A stretch of DNA of 64,000 nt from a bacterium (GTDB taxonomy: Bacteria; Patescibacteriota; Patescibacteriia; Patescibacteriales; UBA12075), in the NCBI GenBank assembly GCA_043820875.1, contig JBDRDI010000034.1, forward strand, positions 11,318 to 75,317. Direction: 5' to 3'. The notes under the pieces were generated by a model. It was given only the letters and a program-made list of their open reading frames with translations. It was not told the origin of the DNA and did not search any database. Position numbers and translations under genes: made by a program. Below, in pieces: positions 2,080-40,283 of this stretch (positions are counted from its first letter, which is position 1; every line of letters begins with the position of its first letter).

Positions 2080-2592
2080 TCAATGCAAATTGCAGTGTTT
2101 GACCCAAATTGCTACTAATGAAAAATATTCTTCTGCAAAAAATCCGAAAAATCTTGATTCATTAGAAAATTTAATTTCTTTTAAAGCGATATCCTTTTCA
2201 AGATTATTAAAAAGCGGCGTATATTCACCGTTCTCTTGTATATCATCTCTTATTAATCCACTTCTTGGCAATTCCTTTAAGGTGATATTGGTTAAATGTT
2301 TTAACTTTGATGTTAGTGCTTTTGCTAACACATCGTCTAATTTGCAAATCTCACATTGATTCTGATTATAATTTTTGAAAACTATAACAATTTTTTTATT
2401 TTCCTTTTCATCGGTTTCCGGAATGTTATTATTGATAGCAAACGATGGATTAATCAATTCCCTCACTTTATCACTGGAAGTATTCATGATTTTTTCGATT
2501 GCTTCTATTTTTGGTTGATCGTCTTGCTTTTTAAGAAGATTAAAAATTTGATTTTTAAGTTTATCAAATTTATTGTTTTGATTTTTGCTCAT
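2080..2592 (-). CDS. Hypothetical protein, candidate toxin partner of the Panacea-domain protein
   Basis: 170-aa ORF whose start overlaps the upstream DUF4065 gene by 23 nt (translational coupling). No domain recognised. The C-terminal SRFFGFFAEEYFSLVAIWVKH is faintly RelE/ParE-like. Confidence 0.5.
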   Translation of the reverse strand: MSKNQNNKFDKLKNQIFNLLKKQDDQPKIEAIEKIMNTSSDKVRELINPSFAINNNIPETDEKENKKIVIVFKNYNQNQCEICKLDDVLAKALTSKLKHLTNITLKELPRSGLIRDDIQENGEYTPLFNNLEKDIALKEIKFSNESRFFGFFAEEYFSLVAIWVKHCNLH

Positions 2593-3040
2593 AATAACTT
2601 TTCATTTCTTCGATTGTAATTTCAGCAGACGAGGATTCATAAGACATTAATCCTGCTCGTGTTTTTTGCCACGGTTCTTCACTATGCGATAATGCTTCTA
2701 AATAATTTGCATCATATTTACCATAAACATTCCAAATTGAATCCAAAACATTCTTTTCTTCTGTCGAAATGTCTGGGAAATCAGATTCTTTGACATCTTG
2801 TTTAATTTCGTTATAGCCAAACTTTTTAAATTCTAAATAAACAATCGGCACGCTTGGGCCATGTATCCATGCTTCTATTTTGTCATCAAATAGTTTTTTA
2901 TTATTAATAACTAAATTCCACGCCTGAGAATAATAAAGTAATTTTTGTAGTTTTTTATTAGTGAAATCGGGCTTTGGATTTTTGTTATTTTTTAAAATAA
3001 AATAATCAGCAACTTGTAGCACTTTAGTTTTTTTAAGCAT
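2570..3040 (-). CDS. Panacea/DUF4065 domain protein (SocA/PanA-type antitoxin-like)
   Basis: KKLQKLLYYSQAWNLV...FDDKIEAWIHGPSVPIVYLEFKKFG is the characteristic DUF4065 core. Confidence 0.75.
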   Translation of the reverse strand: MLKKTKVLQVADYFILKNNKNPKPDFTNKKLQKLLYYSQAWNLVINNKKLFDDKIEAWIHGPSVPIVYLEFKKFGYNEIKQDVKESDFPDISTEEKNVLDSIWNVYGKYDANYLEALSHSEEPWQKTRAGLMSYESSSAEITIEEMKSYYEQKSKQ

Positions 3041-3280
3041 ATTTATATATAGTTAATTTGCTAAATACTAAATATATTCAAATTTTGCTGATTGTTTCAA
3101 TATAATATATTATTACTCTTTTAATTATTATATCACACATATCATAAATATAAAATATATTATAGTATAAAAAGTTTTTATTGTTTTATGCTGTGTTGTA
3201 TTATAGTTAGTTCCTTTGTGATTTCACCCCAATCAATAGTTCTGAACACATCACATAACTCACCCCAATTGAGAAGTTAA

Positions 3281-3310: not shown

Positions 3311-3340
3311 ATTCAAATTTTGAATATTCGTATTTTGAAT
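3311..3340 (+). promoter_or_regulatory. C-box-like operator pair
   Basis: Two abutting 15-mers, attcaaattttgaat and attcgtattttgaat. Each is an ATTC-N7-GAAT inverted repeat. They lie directly upstream of an AT-rich -10 (tattat/tatata, 3342-3350) and the C-protein ATG at 3354. Confidence 0.5.
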
Positions 3341-3353
3341 ATATTATATAACT

Positions 3354-3572
3354 ATGACTAAGACAATATATACAAATGAATATAAACAAATAGCTGAAAA
3401 GTTGAAAAGGGCGAGGATTGAGGCTGGTTTAACCCAAAAAGAAGTTGCTGAAAAAATTAAAAAGCCCCAATCATATATATCAAAAGCTGAAAGCGCTGAA
3501 CAAAGAATTGATGCTGTTGAATTAAAATTATTTGCAAGATTGTATAAAAAAACAATTAATTATTTTTTATAA
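3354..3572 (+). CDS. XRE-family HTH controller (C) protein of the R-M system
   Basis: 72 aa. HTH segment LTQKEVAEKIKKPQSYISKAESAEQRID. Its stop lies 1 nt before the endonuclease ATG. Confidence 0.8.
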   Translation: MTKTIYTNEYKQIAEKLKRARIEAGLTQKEVAEKIKKPQSYISKAESAEQRIDAVELKLFARLYKKTINYFL

Positions 3573-3573
3573 T

Positions 3574-4743
3574 ATGGCTAGAGTAAAAAGAAAGTGGCAT
3601 AAAAAATTTATTAAGTACATGAATTTTATTGTCAAACATCCGAATTACACCGGGATGCCTGAGGCTTATAAGGCTGACGGTTCTATTAGATGGGTAACTA
3701 GCGGTAAAGGTGAAATAGGACAAAAACGACTTAAGTGGTGGGATAAAAAAAGAAAGGAACTAAAAATAGAAAAAGAGGGACCATGGATTTCAAAAGTAGC
3801 GAGAGCGATTCATCCGACAGGATTGAAGCCGTGCCAAATTTGTGGTAAGGAAATGAGCTTGGATTACATCTATCCGAATAAAAGAAGTGGATTTAGTCCA
3901 GGCGCTATGAGTAACGCCCCTGACCGCTTCGATGGTTACCACACCTACAATTTATGTTGCAGAAGTACCCAAGATACCGGAAGACATAAAGATAATTTAA
4001 ATCGCTATGGTGAAGATAGACGCGCTTATGAAAATTGGGCAGACGGGGACTGGAAAGCTGCGAGTTGGTTGATGAAAGTTTTTAATAAACATAGGGTTAG
4101 TCCTGATCACATAGGTCCAATCTCTTTGGGGTTTTCTCATAATCCTAAGTTTAATCCTCTTACTCCGGCCAAAAACTCAGCAAAAAATAACAGAATGACT
4201 TATGCGGATGTAAAAGATTTAATCAAACTAGAAAAAAAAGGTGCGAGTGTTGTTTCGTGGCATTCAAAATATATTTGGGATCTCTTAAAGAATAAAATAA
4301 AGAATGATTCTGACGCATTAAGGTTAAGCAAAATAATGCGAAAAAATTTGCATCAGATTTTAATAATTTTAGCCGAGATATCATCGAATGGATATGATCA
4401 ATTTTTGGTTTCAAATTTTTTACACCCAGAATATGCATATTTTTCGATTTCTTTCAAAGACTTTAATCCTAAAGACGGCTCCTATAAAGAGATGACTAAA
4501 ATTCCGGGGAAAAAGAAACAATATAAAAATAATGCAAAACGATATATTCGTATTTCGCTTGAATCTCTAGCGGCGTACAGAGAGGTAAAAAACAGAAACA
4601 CTCAAACTCGTCAATCAAAAAAAGTTCGAGATGCTTTAGATAAAACTTTGTTATTGTTAAAAAACAAGCATAATGCAGGAGCTAAAAAGAGCCTCTATAA
4701 AGTGTGTTCTATACTTAGTAAAGAATCGGCTAAAAATTATTGA
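3574..4743 (+). CDS. Putative restriction endonuclease, HNH (beta-beta-alpha-Me) type
   Basis: Follows the C gene directly and converges on two MTase genes. Carries CQIC plus SPDHIGPISLGFSHNP...NSAKNN (HNH-like). The ORF-track start at 3532 overlaps the C gene, so ATG 3574 (MARVKRKW) is preferred. Confidence 0.55.
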   Translation: MARVKRKWHKKFIKYMNFIVKHPNYTGMPEAYKADGSIRWVTSGKGEIGQKRLKWWDKKRKELKIEKEGPWISKVARAIHPTGLKPCQICGKEMSLDYIYPNKRSGFSPGAMSNAPDRFDGYHTYNLCCRSTQDTGRHKDNLNRYGEDRRAYENWADGDWKAASWLMKVFNKHRVSPDHIGPISLGFSHNPKFNPLTPAKNSAKNNRMTYADVKDLIKLEKKGASVVSWHSKYIWDLLKNKIKNDSDALRLSKIMRKNLHQILIILAEISSNGYDQFLVSNFLHPEYAYFSISFKDFNPKDGSYKEMTKIPGKKKQYKNNAKRYIRISLESLAAYREVKNRNTQTRQSKKVRDALDKTLLLLKNKHNAGAKKSLYKVCSILSKESAKNY

Positions 4744-5860
4744 TCAATTTTTTCGCGTATTCTTTGGGTGATAATTTGCCAGCCATAAACTCTTGATATA
4801 ATCCTTTCGCGTTTATTTTTTTATCAAAAATATTTTCACCTCCATTAACCTTAATTGAAGGAAGATTGCTTATAGCATCTTTAACGGAAATATATCTCGC
4901 TTCATCAGTTATTATTTCTTCGGGATAACAATCCTCTGGATTTCCAGATAAAACGCCAATCATCACAACTCTTTTTCTTTTTTGTGGAACTCCGAATTTA
5001 ACTGCGTGCATTTTTTTACCGTGCATTTTATATCCTAGATCAGAAAAACTTTCTTTAATACTTTCAAAAGTTTTCCCGTTATTGCTTGTTAAAATTCCTT
5101 CGACGTTTTCAACCAAAATCACTTTTGGTTTTATTTTTTTTACAACCTCAACAAACTCTTTGAATAAGAAATTTCTCGGGTCGTCAACAATTCGTTTACC
5201 TGCGTAAGAAAATCCCTGGCAAGGAGGGCCGCCAATAATAATATCAATTTTTTTACCTTTAATACTATTATAAAGTTTTTCTTTTACATCTTTATTTGTA
5301 ATATCACCCTCAATAAGAATAGTCTTTTTGTGATTATTTTTATATGTTTCACATGCATAATTGAAATTATCATTCGCGGCAACAATATTAAACCCTGCCC
5401 ATTCAAAGCCCTTGCTTAACCCTCCTGACCCACAAAATAAATCCAAAACATTTTTAGTGTTTGTTTTTCTTTTTATTTTTTTTGCGATAGAATAAGCCAG
5501 TAGAGGTGGAACCGCATTGCCAATCTGTTTACAAAGTGATGTTTTTGATCCATAAAAAATATAATCGTCAGGAAACGATTGCAATCGTGCTGCTTCACGC
5601 GCGCTTATTACCCGGTTGTCTTTTGGATGAATATAGGCTCCGTTACCCGGCCTATTAAAATAAGTTGTTATGGTATAGCTTGGTTTATTCCAACTTAATC
5701 TTCCATACAAAGTCGTTCTTCCTCCGGTTTTTCTTATTTGTTCTAGTCTTTTTGATGGTATGTGTAATGGAATATTTTTCCAATTACCACCCTCGGGAAT
5801 CGACATGACCATTTTTAGATCGTTTATACTAAGAGGGTAAGTTACATGATTATATAGCAT
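4730..5860 (-). CDS. DNA (cytosine-5)-methyltransferase, circularly permuted motif order
   Basis: Motif IX/X-like RLSWNKPSYTIT and QIGNAVPPLLA come first. Motif I DLFCGSGGLSKGF, IV GGPPCQGFSYAG, VI ENVEG and VIII QKRKR follow. Confidence 0.9.
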   Translation of the reverse strand: MLYNHVTYPLSINDLKMVMSIPEGGNWKNIPLHIPSKRLEQIRKTGGRTTLYGRLSWNKPSYTITTYFNRPGNGAYIHPKDNRVISAREAARLQSFPDDYIFYGSKTSLCKQIGNAVPPLLAYSIAKKIKRKTNTKNVLDLFCGSGGLSKGFEWAGFNIVAANDNFNYACETYKNNHKKTILIEGDITNKDVKEKLYNSIKGKKIDIIIGGPPCQGFSYAGKRIVDDPRNFLFKEFVEVVKKIKPKVILVENVEGILTSNNGKTFESIKESFSDLGYKMHGKKMHAVKFGVPQKRKRVVMIGVLSGNPEDCYPEEIITDEARYISVKDAISNLPSIKVNGGENIFDKKINAKGLYQEFMAGKLSPKEYAKKLINNF

Positions 5861-7718
5861 AATTTAAACTTTTGTTTATTGTTGTAATTAAATTTTCTTT
5901 TCGATATTTGCTAAGAACAAAATTAATTTCATCTTTCGTTAGTCGGTATAATTTAAAAATTTCAATATTGAGCTCAGCAACGTCATCATCATTTTTTTTA
6001 TTTTTTATTTTGCTAACTAAATTTTCAATTTTTGTTTTTTGATTTTCATTTGGTATTACTATCGGTAGTTCAGCAATTTCGTAATTACTTATATGATTAT
6101 TTGAGTTTGTTATTTTAAATCTCCAGTCTAGCAGTAGTGAATTTAAAACTCCTAACAAATAATCAAGAGTAATTTTTTTATCTTCAAAAAGACTTTCCTT
6201 TTTACAAATATAATTACAAGAATTTCCGAGAACCATATTGGCAGGAATTTTTGTAAACTTTAATCTTTTATTTCCATGTATATTTGATACTTGCTGACAA
6301 ACAAGTCGATCTTTTGATAAGTGTTCTTTTTTCCCGTTTAATTTTAAAATAAAATTTTCATTTACAAATAGATTTCCCAATTCAAAATTGAATTCGGCAA
6401 TATTAATGCCTCTTAACAATGGGTAGTCGGTTTTTTTCTCAGATATAAATTTTTTATCAAGTGTTAAATCTAGCTCACCTCGAAGATTATGAATGTCTGA
6501 AAAAGATTTTACTTTGGGATGGCCGTTTATTTTTTTAAGAACATTCCAGCCTTCTTCGTTTTCAGTTATAATCGGAGCTGATTCAGAAATTGTTTTAATG
6601 GTTTCGATTTTAATTTTTATACTTCTCTTTTCAAAATCAGAAGCGTTAATTACTTCAGGATTTATTTCTAACACAGCGCCGAGTTTGCTTTTATTTAATG
6701 CGAAGAAACAAAAAGCTTGCGAAATGTCAGGGAAAAATTCATTTTTTTCTGGTATAATATAAATTTTTGAAAACGAATAATTTTCCATTAATCTTTTTCT
6801 TAATTTTTCGCTTTGGCGATCGTTTAATAAAGTAACGGGAATTAATAAACCGATACGTCCATTCTTGTTTGTTAAATTTTCAATTATTTCTTCAGTAAAA
6901 ATTTTGTAATAGTTCAACGTACCCTCATTGTATTTGTAGATATTATTAATTTTGATAAAATCTACTAAATCCTTGATATTGATACGTTCATTTTTTTCGT
7001 CCACTGAATATTTATTAGAGTTTTCTTTTAATAATTTATATGGCGGGTTTGTTAATACCATATCAAAACCTTCTTCAACAAAAAATATTTTTTTAAGATT
7101 GTTTTTAATTATTATGCCATCCGATAAGTTAAAAAGTGAGTTGCCAGAATAAAAATTATTTTTATTTATACAGATAATTATTTTATACTTAAACGCTACA
7201 TATAATGGAATTATTTTGGTTAGTAATTTTATTGCATCATGATCTATGTCGGCACAAAAAATATTTTCAATTACTTTTTGTGCTTTTACTTTATTTAAAT
7301 CCGGAATGACACTAAACATATAATCAATATATGACAAAACGAAAATCCCAATTCCTGAGCATGGCTCTAAAAATTTAATTTTCAAAAGGTCTTCATCTTT
7401 TTTTACAAATTTAAAAGCCTCTTTTGTAATCTGTTTTGCAACCTCAAAATCAGTATAGTAAATGCCAAAATGTTTTCTTTCGTCGGTTTTATCAATTTTT
7501 TTATTTTCTTTGCTTTTCTGATGTATCAAGCCAATTAATTGAATAATAGAAATTGGATTTATGGAATTATCAGTTTTTAAATTTTTATACAAAAAATCAT
7601 CAATTGAGTTTTTGATTTTTGGGCTGTCGGTTAAGAAGCTAAAAAGTATATTAATGAGCTCATCATTATTTTTATATTTGGAGCAGATAGTATTATAAAT
7701 TTGAAAAATTTTCTTCAT
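5850..7718 (-). CDS. N6-adenine DNA methyltransferase (Eco57I/TaqI-like, with C-terminal target-recognition domain)
   Basis: Motif I FLEPCSGIGIFV, motif IV VLTNPPY, and a C-terminal TRD-like LLGVLNSLLLDWRF. No nuclease domain evident. It overlaps the m5C MTase gene by 11 nt. Confidence 0.85.
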   Translation of the reverse strand: MKKIFQIYNTICSKYKNNDELINILFSFLTDSPKIKNSIDDFLYKNLKTDNSINPISIIQLIGLIHQKSKENKKIDKTDERKHFGIYYTDFEVAKQITKEAFKFVKKDEDLLKIKFLEPCSGIGIFVLSYIDYMFSVIPDLNKVKAQKVIENIFCADIDHDAIKLLTKIIPLYVAFKYKIIICINKNNFYSGNSLFNLSDGIIIKNNLKKIFFVEEGFDMVLTNPPYKLLKENSNKYSVDEKNERINIKDLVDFIKINNIYKYNEGTLNYYKIFTEEIIENLTNKNGRIGLLIPVTLLNDRQSEKLRKRLMENYSFSKIYIIPEKNEFFPDISQAFCFFALNKSKLGAVLEINPEVINASDFEKRSIKIKIETIKTISESAPIITENEEGWNVLKKINGHPKVKSFSDIHNLRGELDLTLDKKFISEKKTDYPLLRGINIAEFNFELGNLFVNENFILKLNGKKEHLSKDRLVCQQVSNIHGNKRLKFTKIPANMVLGNSCNYICKKESLFEDKKITLDYLLGVLNSLLLDWRFKITNSNNHISNYEIAELPIVIPNENQKTKIENLVSKIKNKKNDDDVAELNIEIFKLYRLTKDEINFVLSKYRKENLITTINKSLNYAI

Positions 7719-7734
7719 TTTGTTAATTTAGATT

Positions 7735-8343
7735 TTATTTTGTATAAGATAAAATACCCTTTACGACTCCCTCGACTTTAAAATTATTTTTATCTGCCAA
7801 AATAGCTTTGTATGACTGGTTAAGTGAAGTAAGAAAAAATTTATCATTATCAATCTGCTGAATTTTTTTAATAAGCACTTCGTCATTGTTAACACATATG
7901 ACAATATTTCCGTCTTCAGCTTCGTTGCCCCTTTTTCCAATCACTAGATCGCCATTTTTAATTTTCGGCTCCATTGAATCTCCTCTCGCCCGAACTAGAA
8001 AAGCGTCAGCGGAAGGAAAACCTAAAATCTTGGTTGATATTGGAATTCTATCAATCGGATTACCGTCCAGCATAGATCCGTTGGGCCCGCATTGTGCCAT
8101 TCCGTATAAATTCAAAAATGCGATTTTTTTATCCGGCTCATCAGCAAGAATTTGATAGTCCTGTGAATTATAGGGATTTTTACGTAAATAACCTTTTTTC
8201 TCAAGTTGTTGTATGTGATGATAAATTACACTCGGAGAAGAAACACCTAATTCGGTCTGTAATTCCCTAATAGTTAGTGGCTCATCAATATTATTTTTCA
8301 GTAATTTTAGTAATTTTTTTTGAGTAGGATGTAATTTTTTCAT
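7735..8343 (-). CDS. LexA-like repressor (winged-helix domain plus S24 peptidase)
   Basis: N-terminal LTIRELQTELGVSSPSVIYHHIQQLEKKGYL, a cleavage-loop-like GMAQCGPNG, Ser motif ARGDSMEP and Lys in EVLIKKI. Its stop is only 16 nt upstream of the m6A MTase start. Confidence 0.8.
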   Translation of the reverse strand: MKKLHPTQKKLLKLLKNNIDEPLTIRELQTELGVSSPSVIYHHIQQLEKKGYLRKNPYNSQDYQILADEPDKKIAFLNLYGMAQCGPNGSMLDGNPIDRIPISTKILGFPSADAFLVRARGDSMEPKIKNGDLVIGKRGNEAEDGNIVICVNNDEVLIKKIQQIDNDKFFLTSLNQSYKAILADKNNFKVEGVVKGILSYTK

Positions 8344-8369
8344 AAAGAGGTTGTTGATAACTATAATAT

Positions 8370-8434
8370 ATTATATCATGTGGATAAGAAGTGCGCAAGA
8401 ACTTATTGACTTGTTCTAATATTTGTTCTATATT
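8370..8434. promoter_or_regulatory. Back-to-back divergent promoters with a shared palindromic operator candidate
   Basis: Plus strand: TTGACT (8406-8411), 17 nt, TATATT (8429-8434). Minus strand: TTGCGC (8398-8393), 17 nt, TGaTATAAT (-10 at 8375-8370). The palindrome AGAAC-N10-GTTCT (8398-8417) spans both -35 boxes, and a third GTTCT lies at 8425-8429. Confidence 0.45.
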
Positions 8435-8467
8435 TAATATAGATTAATAATTAATTAAAAGAGTCCT

Positions 8468-8740
8468 ATGACAAATGAAAAAAAAGGATCCTCTAATCGG
8501 GGCAAAGAATTAACAATTATTGTAAACGGTCGGGAAAAGATCGTAACAAGTAACGAGCTTTCGTTCGTCCATGTTGTTGAATTGGCTTTTGGTGTTATTC
8601 CGACCAATCCGAACACTATTTATACAGTGACCTACAAAAGAGGACACGGGAATAAGCCCGAGGGCATGATGGTTGACGGGGATGTAATTAAAATTAAAGA
8701 TGGAATGATTTTTAATGTCACAGCAACTGATAAATCATAG
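8468..8740 (+). CDS. Small ubiquitin-like (beta-grasp, multiubiquitin-type) protein candidate
   Basis: 90 aa. ELTIIVNGREKIV...YTVTYKRG...[18 protein letters not shown] resembles, from memory, Ubl proteins encoded next to prokaryotic E1-like genes. It overlaps the next gene by 26 nt. Confidence 0.55.
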   Translation: MTNEKKGSSNRGKELTIIVNGREKIVTSNELSFVHVVELAFGVIPTNPNTIYTVTYKRGHGNKPEGMMVDGDVIKIKDGMIFNVTATDKS

Positions 8741-9890
8741 CCCCGATCTCAAAAAGCTTAGAGATGAAGGTTTTGAAGTAAAAATTAAATCTGGTTATTT
8801 GTTGATAAGCGGTGTTCCATATTTGAATTTTAATAAAGAAATAAAAAATGGAATTCTAGTATCTAAATTAGCCTTAACAGGGGATAAGACAATAAAGCCT
8901 GATACCCATGTTGTTTTTTTTGTTGGCGAATATCCATGTCATAAAAATGGTTTAGAAATAGAACAAATTAGACATGACAGTCGTGAGCAGACACTTGTCG
9001 AGGATTTGATAATTAATCATTCTTTTTCTAACAAGCCGCGTGATGGATATACAGATTATTATGAAAAAATGAGTAGATACGTTGATATAATTTCTGCCCC
9101 GGCTCAAACGATAGATAGCTCTGTCACGGCAAAAACTTTTAAAATTATTGAATCTGATGATGAGGAATTCGTGTTTCATTATATTGATACTAATTCAAGC
9201 CGGGCAGAAATTATGTTTATATCTGATAAACTAAAAAATCAAAAAATTGGAATAGTCGGACTTGGGGGCACAGGTTCTTATATTTTGGATTTTATTTCTA
9301 AAACTCCTATAAAGGAAATTCACCTTTTCGATGGAGACATCTTCGCACAACACAACGCATTTCGCGCGCCGGGTGCTGCCTCGAAAGAAAAATTGAGCCA
9401 AAACATTTCCAAAATTCAATATTTGAAAGAAGTCTATTCGAATATGCATAAAAATATTGTTCTGCACCCAGGATATCTTAATCAAGAAAATATCAATCTA
9501 TTGCCTGGTTTAGATTTTTTCTTTATTTGCATTGATAAGGGTGAAATTAAAGAAGAAATTTTTAATCGACTAATTGATCAAAAAATTCCCTTCATTGATA
9601 CTGGAATGGGTATAGAAATCGTTGGAGATAAATTAATAGGGATTGTCCGAGCCACGTTAAGCAAAGAAAACCGAAGAGATCACATAGCTAAAAGGGTATC
9701 CTTTTTTGATCGAAAAGACGAAAACTATTCAAACAATATTCAAATCGCCGAACTTAATGCACTCAACGCTGCGTTAGCAGTGATAAAATGGAAAAAGCTA
9801 AATGGACTTTATAATGATCAAGAAAAGGAATGTCATAACACATATACTATCGATTTAAATATGTTATTAAGTGACGACCATGAAACATAA
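8715..9890 (+). CDS. ThiF/E1-like adenylyltransferase with an N-terminal Cys-containing (possibly E2-like) domain
   Basis: Rossmann/adenylation motifs [16 protein letters not shown] and [17 protein letters not shown]. The ~170-aa N-terminal domain carries GEYPCHKNG. Confidence 0.8.
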
Positions 9891-10248
9891 ATTTGTAAAA
9901 AATATACCCGAATTTTTGGAAGATGGTATTATTTATATATCCATTGATTACAGTACGGTCGCGCATAAATGTTGTTGTGGGTGTGGCAATGAAATAATTA
10001 CACCGCTTTCCCCGACGGATTGGCAACTGATTTTTGATGGCGAAACAATTTCTTTGTACCCGTCAATCGGGAATTGGAACTTACTATGTAAATCCCATTA
10101 CTGGATAACAAATAACAGAATTGAATGGAGCAAAAAATGGACGGATAAAAAAATTTACGAAGGCAGACATTTGGATAATCTTAATAAAAAAAGACATTAC
10201 AACAAAAGACAAGAAAATAAAAAAATGTTTTGGCGTTGGTGGAAATGA
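9871..10248 (+). CDS. Cys-rich zinc-ribbon-like protein (DUF6527-like partner of E1/Ubl operons)
   Basis: 125 aa. [56 protein letters not shown]. It overlaps the E1-like gene by 20 nt. The family assignment is from memory. Confidence 0.6.
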
Positions 10249-10254
10249 ATTTTG

Positions 10255-10282
10255 TTGACTAAACTTATTTAAGTGGTAAAAT
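10255..10282 (+). promoter_or_regulatory. Promoter candidate for the RelA/SpoT gene
   Basis: TTGACT (10255-10260), 16 nt, then an extended -10 TGgTAAAAT (-10 hexamer at 10277-10282). Confidence 0.4.
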
Positions 10283-10351
10283 AAAATTGGAACATTTATG
10301 TTTTAAAATAGCCCTATCTTGCAGCTATGTTTATAAAATTTATTTAAATAT

Positions 10352-11386
10352 ATGTCATTAATTAATAAATACGATTTTTTAAAAAAATATAATATTGATG
10401 AAAATAAATATAAGAAGGCAACTATTAGTTGGGATGATTTGGTAAACATATTTAATAATTACGAAATAACAAAAAATGATTTTGATCCAATTGCTCAATT
10501 TATTGTTAGCAAATTAAGAAAAGTAGAAAAAGTTCATTTTGCTCAATATAGAATCAAAAATTCAGAGCATTTAATAGAAAAGATAATTAGAAAAAAAATC
10601 GAGAAAAGTTGTGATATAAAAGTTGATAATTATAAAGAAAAAATTACTGACTTGATAGGTGTTAGAATTTTGCATCTTTTTAAAGAGGATTGGAACAAAA
10701 TTCATAAATTTATAATAGATGAGTTTGATCTATTGGGAAAACCAACTGCTTATGTAAGAAAAGGTGACGAGGAAAAATATATTGAACATTTCAAACAAAA
10801 TAATTGTGATATTGAAGAACATAAATTAGGTTATAGGTCTGTACATTATCTTATAAAATCCGCGTTATCAAAAAAACAATATATTACGGAAATACAGGTG
10901 AGGACTATATTCGAAGAAGGTTGGAGCGAAATAGATCATAAAATAAGATATCCTTATAATAAAAACAACATTATTCTTGAAAAATTTTTAACTATTCTTA
11001 ATAGGTTTGCAGGCAACGCCGACGAAATGGCTTCATTTATAAGTTTTCTTCAACGAGATCTTGATAAAAATAAAGCAATTATCCAAAAATTGAAACATGA
11101 AATAGACGAATTAAAAATTGACCACGAGAAAAAGAAAGAAATAAAAGAAAATATAGATAATGTAAGCGGCCTATATGCCAGTGCGTCTATTCTTTCAAAG
11201 TATTCGGGGCTAGTAGTAGCTGTGAAAGAAGCAAGCAATGTAATTAGCCATTCGGGATTATTAGAAGCAACAAAAATTGCACAACAGGTGGTCGGAAATA
11301 CAGAAGCTTTAACGGCGGCAAAAAATGTACAGCAAGTAACCAAGAGTTTGGGGGCTGTAAGACCAGTAATTGATGAGAATAATTAA
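10352..11386 (+). CDS. RelA/SpoT-domain nucleotidyltransferase (small alarmone synthetase / toxSAS-like) with a C-terminal coiled-coil and Ala-rich extension
   Basis: DLIGVRILHLFKEDW, GYRSVHYLIKS and EIQVRTIFEEGWSEIDHKIRYP are the RelA_SpoT synthetase core. No hydrolase, TGS or ACT domains. Confidence 0.85.
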   Translation: MSLINKYDFLKKYNIDENKYKKATISWDDLVNIFNNYEITKNDFDPIAQFIVSKLRKVEKVHFAQYRIKNSEHLIEKIIRKKIEKSCDIKVDNYKEKITDLIGVRILHLFKEDWNKIHKFIIDEFDLLGKPTAYVRKGDEEKYIEHFKQNNCDIEEHKLGYRSVHYLIKSALSKKQYITEIQVRTIFEEGWSEIDHKIRYPYNKNNIILEKFLTILNRFAGNADEMASFISFLQRDLDKNKAIIQKLKHEIDELKIDHEKKKEIKENIDNVSGLYASASILSKYSGLVVAVKEASNVISHSGLLEATKIAQQVVGNTEALTAAKNVQQVTKSLGAVRPVIDENN

Positions 11387-20050: not shown

Positions 20051-20521
20051 ATGAATTTAAACAAAGCTATGCTTATCGGAAACCTGACCAGGGATCCGGA
20101 AATCAGGAATATTCCTTCGGGAATTCCGGTCGCCTCTTTTGCGATTGCCACAAATTCTGTTTGGAAAGATCAATCCGGGCAAAAGCAAGAAAGAGCGGAT
20201 TTTCACAATATCGTTGCTTGGAGAAGATTGGCGGAAATTTGCGGACAATATTTAAAAAAGGGATCAAAGGTTTATATTGAAGGCCGTTTGCAAACCAGAG
20301 ATTGGGTTGGGCAAGATGGCGTGAAAAAATACCGAACTGAAATTATCGCGGAAAATATGATTATGCTTGATCGTGTTGGAGCTTCATCTGCGGAAGGATC
20401 AAACTATCAAGCACCGGCACCTTCTCAGGAGAGCGAACCGGTAATAAATATTGATGAGCCTGGAATCGGCGATATCAATCCGGCTGAAGACGAAATCAAA
20501 GTAGAGAATATCCCCTTTTAA
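20051..20521 (+). CDS. ssb: Single-stranded DNA-binding protein
   Basis: [18 protein letters not shown], an OB fold and an acidic C-terminal tip ...ENIPF. Confidence 0.95.
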
Positions 20522-21395: not shown

Positions 21396-22460
21396 TTATT
21401 CTACCACTTCTATGGATTTTATTTCTGAGATAATTCTTTTTCGTATTTCTTTCATTAATTTTTTGTCGGCTCTTAAAAATCTTTTAGCAGTTTCTCGGCC
21501 CACACCCAGTTTTATGTCTTCAAAGCTGTATGAATTTCCATTTTTTTTCACAACATTATGGACAACAGCCAAATCAAGTAAATCTCCGGAAACAGAAATA
21601 CCTTCATTATACATAATATCAAATTCACAAGTTCTGAATGGCGCGGCCACTTTGTTTTTTACTATTTTTACTTTGACCCGATTGCCGATTATTCTTTCAC
21701 CTTGTTTTATTTGCGCTGATCGTCTTACTTCAATTCGTACTGAGCTATAAAATTTCAAAGCATTACCGCCGGTAGTGGTTTCCGGGTTGCCGAAAAATAC
21801 GCCAATTTTTTGTCTGGTTTGATTGATAAAAATCACTACTGTTTTGGTTCTGGCAATGGCGCCGGTAAGTTTGCGAAGCGCTTGGCTCATCAAGCGCGCT
21901 TGTAGGCCCATGTGTTGATCGCCCATTTCGCCTTCAATCTCTCTTTGAGGAACAAGAGCCGCGACGCTGTCTATCACCACGACGTCAATAGCATTGGACC
22001 TGACAAGCGTTTCTACAATTTCCAAAGCTTGTTCACCAGTGTCGGGCTGGGAAATAATCAAGTCTTTTGTGTTGATTCCTATTTTGGCGGCATAGTCCGG
22101 ATCAAGCGCGTGTTCCGCGTCCACAAAAGCGGCAATGCCGCCCAATTTTTGAACTTCGGCGATAATATGTTGGGCAAGAGTTGTCTTGCCGGACGCTTCT
22201 GGGCCGTAAATCTCAATGATTCTTCCGCGTGGTACCCCGCCGATTCCCAAGGCAAGATCCAAAGATAGACAACCCGATGGAACAGCGTCCACGTCAACTT
22301 TCCGAGCCTCACCGAATTTCATGATTGAACCTTCGCCAAATCTTGTTTTAATTTGGTCCATGGCCGACATCGCCGCTTCCAGTTTTTCACCTGATTCTTT
22401 TTTGTTTTCCGCGTTGTTTGTTTCTTCTTCTGATGATTTTTGCTTGTTTTTTTCAGTCAT
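21396..22460 (-). CDS. recA: Recombinase RecA
   Basis: [27 protein letters not shown] and [12 protein letters not shown]. Confidence 0.98.
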
Positions 22461-39794: not shown

Positions 39795-40283
39795 ATGAAA
39801 AAAATAATTTTGGGAATTGATCCAGGCATTGCCGATACCGGTTTTGGGGTTATTGAAAAAGATGAAAGAAGTAAATTAAAATGCCTTTGCTACGGTTCAA
39901 TAAAAACAAAAGCCAAGAGTCCCTTGCCTGACCGATTGGAAAAATTAAGCGTAGAATTGGATGAAATAATAAAAAAATATAAACCCGATTTGATTGCGGT
40001 GGAGCAATTGTTTTTTTGTAAGAACGTAAAGACAGCATTGATTGTTGGGCACGCGCGCGGAGTGGTTTTGCTTATTGCCAGAAAAAATAAAACGCAGATT
40101 ACGGAATTTACTCCGTTGCAAATCAAGCAAGCAGTATCTTCTTATGGTCGCTCCGAAAAAGCGCAAGTTCAAAAAATGGTGAAATTAATATTAAATTTAA
40201 AAGAAATACCAAAACCGGATGACGCAGCCGACGCTTTAGCAGCGGCCATCTGCGCGTCCTCTCAAATATGCAAAAAAAATTAA
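39795..40283 (+). CDS. ruvC: Holliday junction resolvase RuvC
   Basis: ILGIDPGIADTGFGVI, AVEQLFF and a C-terminal DAADALAAAIC. Confidence 0.9.
   Translation: MKKIILGIDPGIADTGFGVIEKDERSKLKCLCYGSIKTKAKSPLPDRLEKLSVELDEIIKKYKPDLIAVEQLFFCKNVKTALIVGHARGVVLLIARKNKTQITEFTPLQIKQAVSSYGRSEKAQVQKMVKLILNLKEIPKPDDAADALAAAICASSQICKKN

Follow-up and report, generated by a model that had tools for sequence, protein, structure and literature searches.

Immune operons of bacteria have so far been coupled to DNA damage by three types of regulator, CapH+CapP, CapW/BrxR and CapK+CapS (PMC9122588, PMC13228613, PMC13373217). These regulators lie divergently from, and immediately upstream of, cyclic-oligonucleotide-based anti-phage signalling system (CBASS), Bub, YegP or TIR cargo, and their presumed input is DNA damage; CapK+CapS is, moreover, often sandwiched between a restriction-modification (R-M) system and an abortive-infection operon. 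Published accounts of CapK+CapS, CapH+CapP and CapW (text and supplements) make no mention of LexA or S24, and our literature searches turned up no account of Bub, CBASS or R-M systems being regulated by a LexA-type protein. About half of the catalogued Bub operons have no assigned regulator. Here, we describe positions 7735-8467 of a 64-kb stretch of a patescibacterial contig (JBDRDI010000034.1); this whole stretch is called the window, and all statements on uniqueness and absence in the window cover these 64 kb. The region consists of a gene for a LexA-family repressor and of the intergenic DNA that separates it from a divergent Bub operon. We consider it probable, judging from sequence comparison, that this is a self-contained, horizontally mobile cassette in which the repressor and a bidirectional promoter/operator act as a local, probably RecA-inducible switch. 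That the cassette recurs in many uncultured bacteria, linked there to other immune systems, suggests that it is a new regulator of bacterial immunity, one that would sense DNA damage.

The repressor gene (7735-8343, minus strand; 202 amino acids) was assigned by Pfam and by aligning its whole length with PDB structures of LexA. Residues 1-59 match the winged-helix domain LexA_DNA_bind (PF01726; E = 8.5e-12, 45.1 bits versus a cut-off of 23.7) and residues 79-194 match Peptidase_S24 (PF00717; E = 4e-23); E. coli LexA structures align with the protein end to end, from residue 1, at low sequence identity. In this alignment Ser123 (GDSMEP) and Lys159 (VLIKKI) fall at the positions of E. coli LexA S119 and K156. 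A preliminary description of this DNA, which had read the gene as LexA-like from a winged helix, an S24 domain, the GDSMEP serine and a downstream lysine, is thus borne out. The predicted scissile bond, at the position of LexA Ala84-Gly85, is Cys85-Gly86 rather than the Ala-Gly pair that characterizes LexA. A homologue search returned 1,138 matches, and residue conservation was read from the best 120 of these, which are 60-100% identical to the repressor, measure ~200 amino acids and come for the most part from uncultured lineages, Patescibacteria among them. The Cys-Gly pair, the catalytic serine and the catalytic lysine are kept in 120/120, which argues that the self-cleavage apparatus is under selection. 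Since the natural RecA-stimulated cleavage bond of UmuD is also Cys-Gly, self-cleavage of the repressor would still be plausible.

In overall design, the protein resembles canonical LexA (TIGR00498; PDB 1JHH, 3JSO): both are ~200 amino acids long, join a winged-helix LexA_DNA_bind domain to an S24 domain with a Ser/Lys dyad, and have an operator, here a candidate, at their own promoter. Besides its scissile bond, it differs from canonical LexA in scoring 99.3 bits against the lexA equivalog model TIGR00498, under the cut-off of 110.95. A relative from Dojkabacteria (L013) exceeds this cut-off (120.9), and the NCBI label of a protein identical to the repressor is 'S24 family peptidase'. There is no second LexA or S24 open reading frame (ORF) in the window. 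Self-cleaving S24 repressors of the CI/SetR type, from phages and integrative elements, and the CI-like LexA of Bacteroidetes (PMC8565304) are similar in serving divergent promoters of mobile elements, but they carry a multi-helical Xre/CI-type N-terminal domain where the window protein has a LexA winged helix. The window protein also has no close relatives in IMG/VR, among INPHARED/GenBank phages or among PLSDB plasmids. These collections gave only distant S24 or canonical LexA matches (at most 41% identity, often partial), and an origin as a prophage or plasmid repressor was rejected. Nor was homology to CapW (WYL), CapH/CapP or CapK/CapS detected by Pfam and PADLOC, which returned only LexA/S24 and generic winged-helix matches. 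The repressor therefore belongs to a family unrelated to the Cap regulators and, unlike them, is predicted to unite DNA binding and proteolytic inactivation in a single polypeptide. Its signal would arrive via RecA filaments, not via the direct sensing of single-stranded DNA by a WYL domain, metallopeptidase or kinase, and it also heads a probable methylase operon.

The divergent regulatory region between the repressor gene and BubA measures 124 bp (8344-8467). On the plus strand, a promoter scan identified the Bub operon promoter (8406-8434; 10/12 matches), with a -35 box TTGACT at 8406-8411, a 17-nt spacer and a -10 box TATATT at 8429-8434. The promoter of the repressor-methylase operon (8370-8398, minus strand) was read directly from the sequence and consists of a -35 box TTGCGC at 8398-8393, a 17-nt spacer and an extended -10 element TGATATAAT at 8378-8370. 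The two -35 boxes stand back to back, 7 bp apart. Overlying both promoters are a palindrome, AGAAC-N10-GTTCT (8398-8417), which is the sole exact copy in the window (0.03 expected), and a tandem repeat, TGTTCTA-N5-TGTTCTA (8412-8430, plus strand), which is likewise the sole copy (0.00 expected). These elements interlock: the palindrome is made of the inner tandem unit and an inverted half-site (8398-8402), and a third GTTCT at 8425-8429 is the outer tandem unit. Both tandem units occupy the 17-nt spacer of the Bub promoter and reach into its -10 box, and the inverted half-site overlaps the -35 box of the repressor's own promoter by 1 nt. We thus recovered the two promoters, their 7-bp separation, the palindrome and the third GTTCT of the preliminary description, and the promoter pair is conserved in relatives (see below).

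Neither the palindrome nor the tandem site was found before recA (21396-22460, minus strand; Pfam RecA, E = 1e-134), ssb (20051-20521) or ruvC (39795-40283), or anywhere else in the window, and relaxed matches occurred at chance level; the earlier remark that no such palindrome precedes these three genes therefore stands. The Gram-positive box GAAC-N4-GTTC is absent from the window, and near the promoter of the restriction genes described below the one candidate operator is a tandem match with two mismatches (3182-3200), within chance expectation. Given its uniqueness in the window and its conservation in relatives, we rejected the palindrome as a chance product of AT-rich DNA. In this, too, the locus departs from canonical LexA: the cassette sits in a mobile island, recA, ssb and ruvC carry no operator, and in place of a simple palindrome the candidate operator combines two TAGAACA units in tandem with a single inverted half-site.

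To survey operator conservation, 41 related loci were oriented on the repressor gene, and 412 kb of sequence elsewhere served as the comparison. AGAAC-N7-AGAAC or AGAAC-N6-AGAAC occurs within 220 nt upstream of the gene in 29 of the 41 loci. Elsewhere in the 412 kb there are five such sites, two of which lie farther upstream of the same repressor gene. The exact AGAAC-N10-GTTCT palindrome was found upstream in 11/41 loci and not elsewhere; loci L218-L221 give four more. Both counts overstate independence, as some of the loci are closely related to each other, but the exact palindromes still carry differing spacers, at least six of them distinct. About 20 independent relatives with proteins 54-89% identical (from Patescibacteria, Margulisiibacteriota, Kiritimatiellales and Bacteroidota) have a common upstream architecture, and registering these regions gave the consensus TAGAACA-N5-TAGAACA-(a/g/t)GTCAA-N3-GTTCTTGnnC ... 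TGnTATAAT ... ATG. Conservation extends to the half-sites and the distances between them, to the extended -10 element and to the back-to-back placement of the -35 boxes, while the bases in between vary. The GTCAA of the consensus is the other strand of the divergent promoter's -35 box (TTGAC); among 16 loci amenable to registration, 13 keep it, and these 13 include loci with CBASS or TIR cargo. GTTCTTGnnC ... TGnTATAAT was found again in most close relatives; in relatives, as in the window, a conserved half-site abuts or overlaps the -35 box of the repressor gene's promoter.

The inverted unit is less fixed in place: it lies 11 or 21-24 nt away in other subgroups (L214, L216, L013 and Turneriella), and in loci of the L006 type the whole element is flipped, which places the tandem repeat within the repressor-methylase promoter. 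Because of these differences, we regard the tandem repeat (GAAC-N8-GAAC), not the palindrome, as the constant element. The palindrome of the preliminary description is itself conserved upstream of relatives; the correction to be made is that the tandem repeat is the most conserved element of the candidate operator. We also noted variation at single loci. At L006 (6070-6125), AGAAC-N10-GTTCT-N7-GTTCT stands directly before the -10 box of a repressor/m5C (5-methylcytosine)-methylase/Vsr operon, with a transposase upstream and no defence cargo. At L217 (5830-6000; Kiritimatiellales) the tandem units read TAGTACA rather than TAGAACA, and the inverted unit is still GTTCT; the recognition helix of the L217 protein is unchanged, and we draw no conclusion on a change of operator specificity. 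At L220 (5765-8115), a 63%-identical family member adjoins a convergent cluster of umuC, umuD and SRAP, and no TAGAACA tandem site was found before umuD.

We next considered what the repressor gene is linked to in 21 distinct loci, the window included, whose proteins are at least 54% identical. Twelve of these carry defence-type cargo on the divergent side. Type II Bub operons are found in the window and L003. By definition, these operons comprise the ubiquitin-like (Ubl) protein BubA, the E2-E1 fusion BubBD and BubE (DUF6527), with no JAB peptidase (bioRxiv 10.1101/2024.11.21.623953). The window operon belongs to this type, since the three Pfam signatures occur in that order on the plus strand: Multi_ubiq in BubA (PF14452; 8468-8740), DUF6791+ThiF in BubBD (PF20590+PF00899; 8715-9890) and DUF6527/BubE in the serine protease BubE (PF20137; 9871-10248). 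The other cargos are CBASS CD-NTases with an effector of one transmembrane segment or Cap2 (L001, L012, L218 and L017), TIR proteins with or without a caspase-like protein (TIR+caspase in L221, ThsB-TIR in L217), a caspase-helicase (L220), Ubl-ThiF-JAB cassettes (L018 and L057) and DUF1508/YegP (L016). Cargo differs even between repressors that are 88-89% identical, which face Bub, CBASS or TIR+caspase. The arrangement that marks a Cap-type regulator is therefore also seen here: a divergent position directly upstream of diverse immune operons, with cargo exchanged between close homologues. Both this range of cargo and the siting of the repressor gene between R-M genes and an immune operon closely resemble what is documented for CapK+CapS, CapH+CapP and CapW.

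On its other side, the repressor gene is followed directly, on the same strand, by a DNA methylase gene in 11/21 loci. Four kinds of methylase are represented: m5C methylases (L001, L006, L010 and L214), an m5C+m6A (N6-methyladenine) fusion (L054), an N6_N4 methylase (L012) and Eco57I/N6-type enzymes (the window, L015, L216, L217 and L221). Gaps between repressor and methylase genes measure 5-50 nt, except at L217, where there is an overlap of 11 nt; the order of repressor followed by m6A methylase is shared by L216 and L221. In the window, 16 nt separate the repressor stop codon (ending at 7735) from the start (7718) of an Eco57I-type N6-adenine methylase gene (5850-7718, minus strand; Pfam PF07669), which overlaps by 11 nt a C5-cytosine methylase gene (4730-5860, minus strand; Pfam PF00145, E = 1.5e-78, two matched stretches). 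Both the 16-nt gap and the overlap had been noted before. There is no terminator between the repressor and methylase genes in the window, and the m6A methylase is probably co-transcribed with the repressor gene; together with the recurrent linkage, this favours the earlier view that the repressor and both methylase genes would form one minus-strand operon.

Partner restriction enzymes vary among the loci, being Alw26I, NgoBV, BsuBI/PstI or of unknown families, some with Vsr. The window encodes a C protein with an Xre-type helix-turn-helix (3354-3572, plus strand; assigned from its translation and sequence) and an Alw26I-family type IIS restriction endonuclease (3574-4743, plus strand; Pfam RE_Alw26IDE, E = 1.8e-126), a pair that is convergent to the methylases and recurs in L216. 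The C protein gives the restriction enzyme, the partner of both methylases, a separate regulator of its own.

Alignment of the island with related loci by blastn delimited the module. For L001 (protein 88% identical) DNA homology is limited to 7735-8459, and for L054 (81% identical) to 7734-8458; in both, the shared DNA is the repressor ORF plus the intergenic region and ends a few bases short of the start codon of the cargo. As the flanks of L001 and L054 are unrelated to those of the window on both sides and the shared DNA spans only ~725 bp, the gene and the intergenic region constitute a discrete module. Homology runs on into Bub for L003 (7732-10140) and into the methylase for L221 (6024-8483). 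For L216, from Margulisiibacteriota, it takes in the repressor gene and the whole R-M system (restriction enzyme and both methylases) and leaves out the intergenic region. The L216 cassette itself (6001-10949) is a full set of repressor, m6A and m5C methylases, convergent Alw26I-type restriction enzyme and C protein, at 66-69% DNA identity in another phylum and without Bub. In a neighbour-joining tree, every member of the window clade (at least 68% identical) lies in an R-M or defence context. The repressor gene of the window falls inside a low-GC island formed by the first 14 kb (GC content ~0.27-0.33, versus 0.36-0.43 in the remainder), outside which lie the housekeeping genes recA, ssb, ruvC, gyrA, ftsK, smc, efp and rpsF.

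From this anatomy and from the known biology of LexA and the Cap regulators, we propose how the cassette might work; DNA binding, repression, RecA dependence and co-transcription are all inferred here. In resting cells, dimers of the repressor would occupy the three TAGAACA-type half-sites. The two tandem copies (8412-8430) would block the spacer of the Bub promoter, and the inverted copy (8398-8402) would abut the repressor's own -35 box; from this placement, bound repressor should act strongly on the cargo promoter, closing it tightly, and more weakly on its own. An undamaged cell would then keep the Bub operon tightly off and the repressor-m6A-m5C operon autoregulated at a maintenance level. 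A naive host contains no repressor, so that upon arrival there expression would begin with the methylases, and the C protein would delay the nuclease. DNA damage, phage attack or self-restriction would generate RecA filaments on single-stranded DNA, and the recA product, as the presumed co-protease, would trigger self-cleavage of the repressor at Cys85-Gly86. We propose this induction step because Cys85-Gly86, Ser123 and Lys159 are invariant and recA is present. Cleavage would derepress Bub as a second-line pathway and raise methylase output.

A broader version of this proposal is, in our view, tentative: the repressor may represent a fourth, RecA-coupled class of immune-operon regulator that doubles as a self-restriction homeostat. 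Double-strand breaks made by the linked restriction enzyme on phage DNA or under-methylated host DNA would feed RecA filaments, and the resulting repressor cleavage would raise methylase and switch on Bub, CBASS or TIR, so coordinating layered immunity in a plug-in module that spreads among bacteria of the candidate phyla radiation (CPR) and other phyla. If true, a LexA-type single-protein module would link the RecA co-protease signal directly to immune gene expression, and would provide the first such link to an R-M methylase operon. It would also offer a regulatory handle on the defence islands of uncultured CPR bacteria, in which gene control is almost uncharted, and the candidate operator of 20-30 bp and the 202-residue protein are defined well enough to be tested in E. 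coli.

Several observations weigh against a purely local role. One family member (L219) lies among housekeeping genes, another (L220) lies beside umuDC/SRAP, and in a Turneriella group (44% identity) the gene adjoins a family-B DNA polymerase within a syntenic stretch of conserved chromosome; the family thus also holds probable ordinary LexA proteins, and members in such housekeeping or SOS-like neighbourhoods make a wider role in this genome possible. Dojkabacteria-type members score above the lexA equivalog threshold. Since 64 kb of the genome are visible, further operators or a second lexA might lie beyond the window. Within it, the AT-rich DNA contains promoter-like hexamers as often as chance predicts, so the methylases might have a private promoter, and a repressor dimer may read either the tandem repeat or the palindrome.

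Some of these observations would fit a repressor that is simply the housekeeping SOS LexA of the organism, with R-M and Bub genes adjacent by chance or through an integration hotspot and with the operator serving lexA autoregulation only. The protein is, after all, a full-length LexA homologue that comes near the TIGR00498 cut-off, which L013 passes, no other LexA-like ORF is seen in the window, and relatives occupy housekeeping, umuDC-adjacent and syntenic chromosomal contexts. A direct-repeat LexA motif has, moreover, been cited for Patescibacteria (PMC7739468). We nevertheless consider this explanation unlikely. The gene is inside the low-GC island, recA, ssb and ruvC lack the operator, and homology to close relatives ends exactly at the module edges, with different flanks on both sides. 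The tandem repeat occupies the spacer of the cargo promoter, and the -35 box of that promoter is conserved across differing cargos. Lastly, Bacteroidota homologues (Ilyomonas limi, Chitinophagaceae and Salinimicrobium) adjoin CBASS or Ubl cassettes in a phylum whose SOS response is reported to be under a different, CI-like repressor (PMC8565304). An island-dedicated switch, as the preliminary description had supposed, is accordingly supported by the low-GC island, the 725-bp module, the swapping of cargo and the lack of another operator in the window, although the few relatives in housekeeping or SOS-like contexts would also allow a wider role in this genome. Most likely, a LexA lineage of the CPR type, whose operator is a tandem repeat, was co-opted as a portable regulator. 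The cassette also offers a concrete example of a LexA lineage that passed from global to local control, or in the opposite direction.

The linkage to methylases raises another possibility, namely a dedicated R-M controller, analogous to methylase autoregulation, that permits a burst of methylase on entry into a new host followed by maintenance, Bub adjacency being without regulatory meaning. C proteins and methylase autoregulation in type II R-M systems (reviewed in PMC3874152) resemble the window cassette in that a small repressor gene heads an R-M transcription unit whose promoter is, or in the window is predicted to be, autoregulated, which would favour methylation before restriction in a new host. 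They differ in that C proteins have an Xre-type helix-turn-helix and lie upstream of the restriction gene, whereas the window repressor precedes methylases, has a self-cleavage domain and adopts a different fold. In favour of such a controller, L216 has the same repressor-m6A-m5C/C-R cassette without Bub, the methylases that follow the repressor gene in 11 of the 21 loci come with five restriction enzyme families or candidates, and loci of the L006 type carry the tandem repeat within the promoter of a repressor-M-R-Vsr operon. Yet L003, L218, L017, L018 and L057 combine the repressor with defence cargo and no methylase, the window-type arrangement covers the divergent cargo promoter best, and the restriction gene already has its C protein, all of which make this explanation quite improbable. 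Least probable of all is a repressor that acts constitutively, its S24 domain serving for dimerization only, or that responds to some other signal (a phage protein or pH): the Cys-Gly rather than Ala-Gly bond, the low identity to E. coli LexA and the conjectural nature of RecA dependence would allow it, but the invariance of Cys-Gly, Ser and Lys in the best 120 homologues points to selection on cleavage, the RecA-stimulated bond of UmuD is of the same kind, and recA is present.

Beyond the local, RecA-inducible switch that we favour, the island has further features. A single base separates the end of the C gene from the ATG of the restriction enzyme at 3574, and the true start of the restriction enzyme ORF is probably downstream of the listed one (TTG at 3532). 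Upstream of the C gene, an 11-nt direct repeat, ATTTTGAATAT, at 3317-3327 and 3332-3342 is a candidate C-box. The m5C methylase (4730-5860) is circularly permuted, its motifs IX/X (QSFPDDY...GNAVPP) preceding motifs I (DLFCGSGG), IV (GPPCQGFS) and VI (ENV). No recognizable Shine-Dalgarno sequence was seen upstream of the repressor gene (8344-8360, minus strand; AACAACCTCTTT-ATG) or of the m6A methylase gene (7719-7734, minus strand; AAATTAACAA-ATG), unlike BubA, which is preceded by AAAAGAG. At the left side of the island, a gene with a SocA/Panacea antitoxin domain (2570-3040, minus strand) overlaps a 170-residue ORF of no assigned function (2080-2592), and the two look like a toxin-antitoxin pair. 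Finally, 104 nt past BubE and on the same strand lies a gene for a 344-residue RelA/SpoT-domain protein resembling small alarmone synthetases (10352-11386, plus strand). It is missing from the Bub operon of L003, and it could encode an effector or else be a toxSAS-like gene in its own right.

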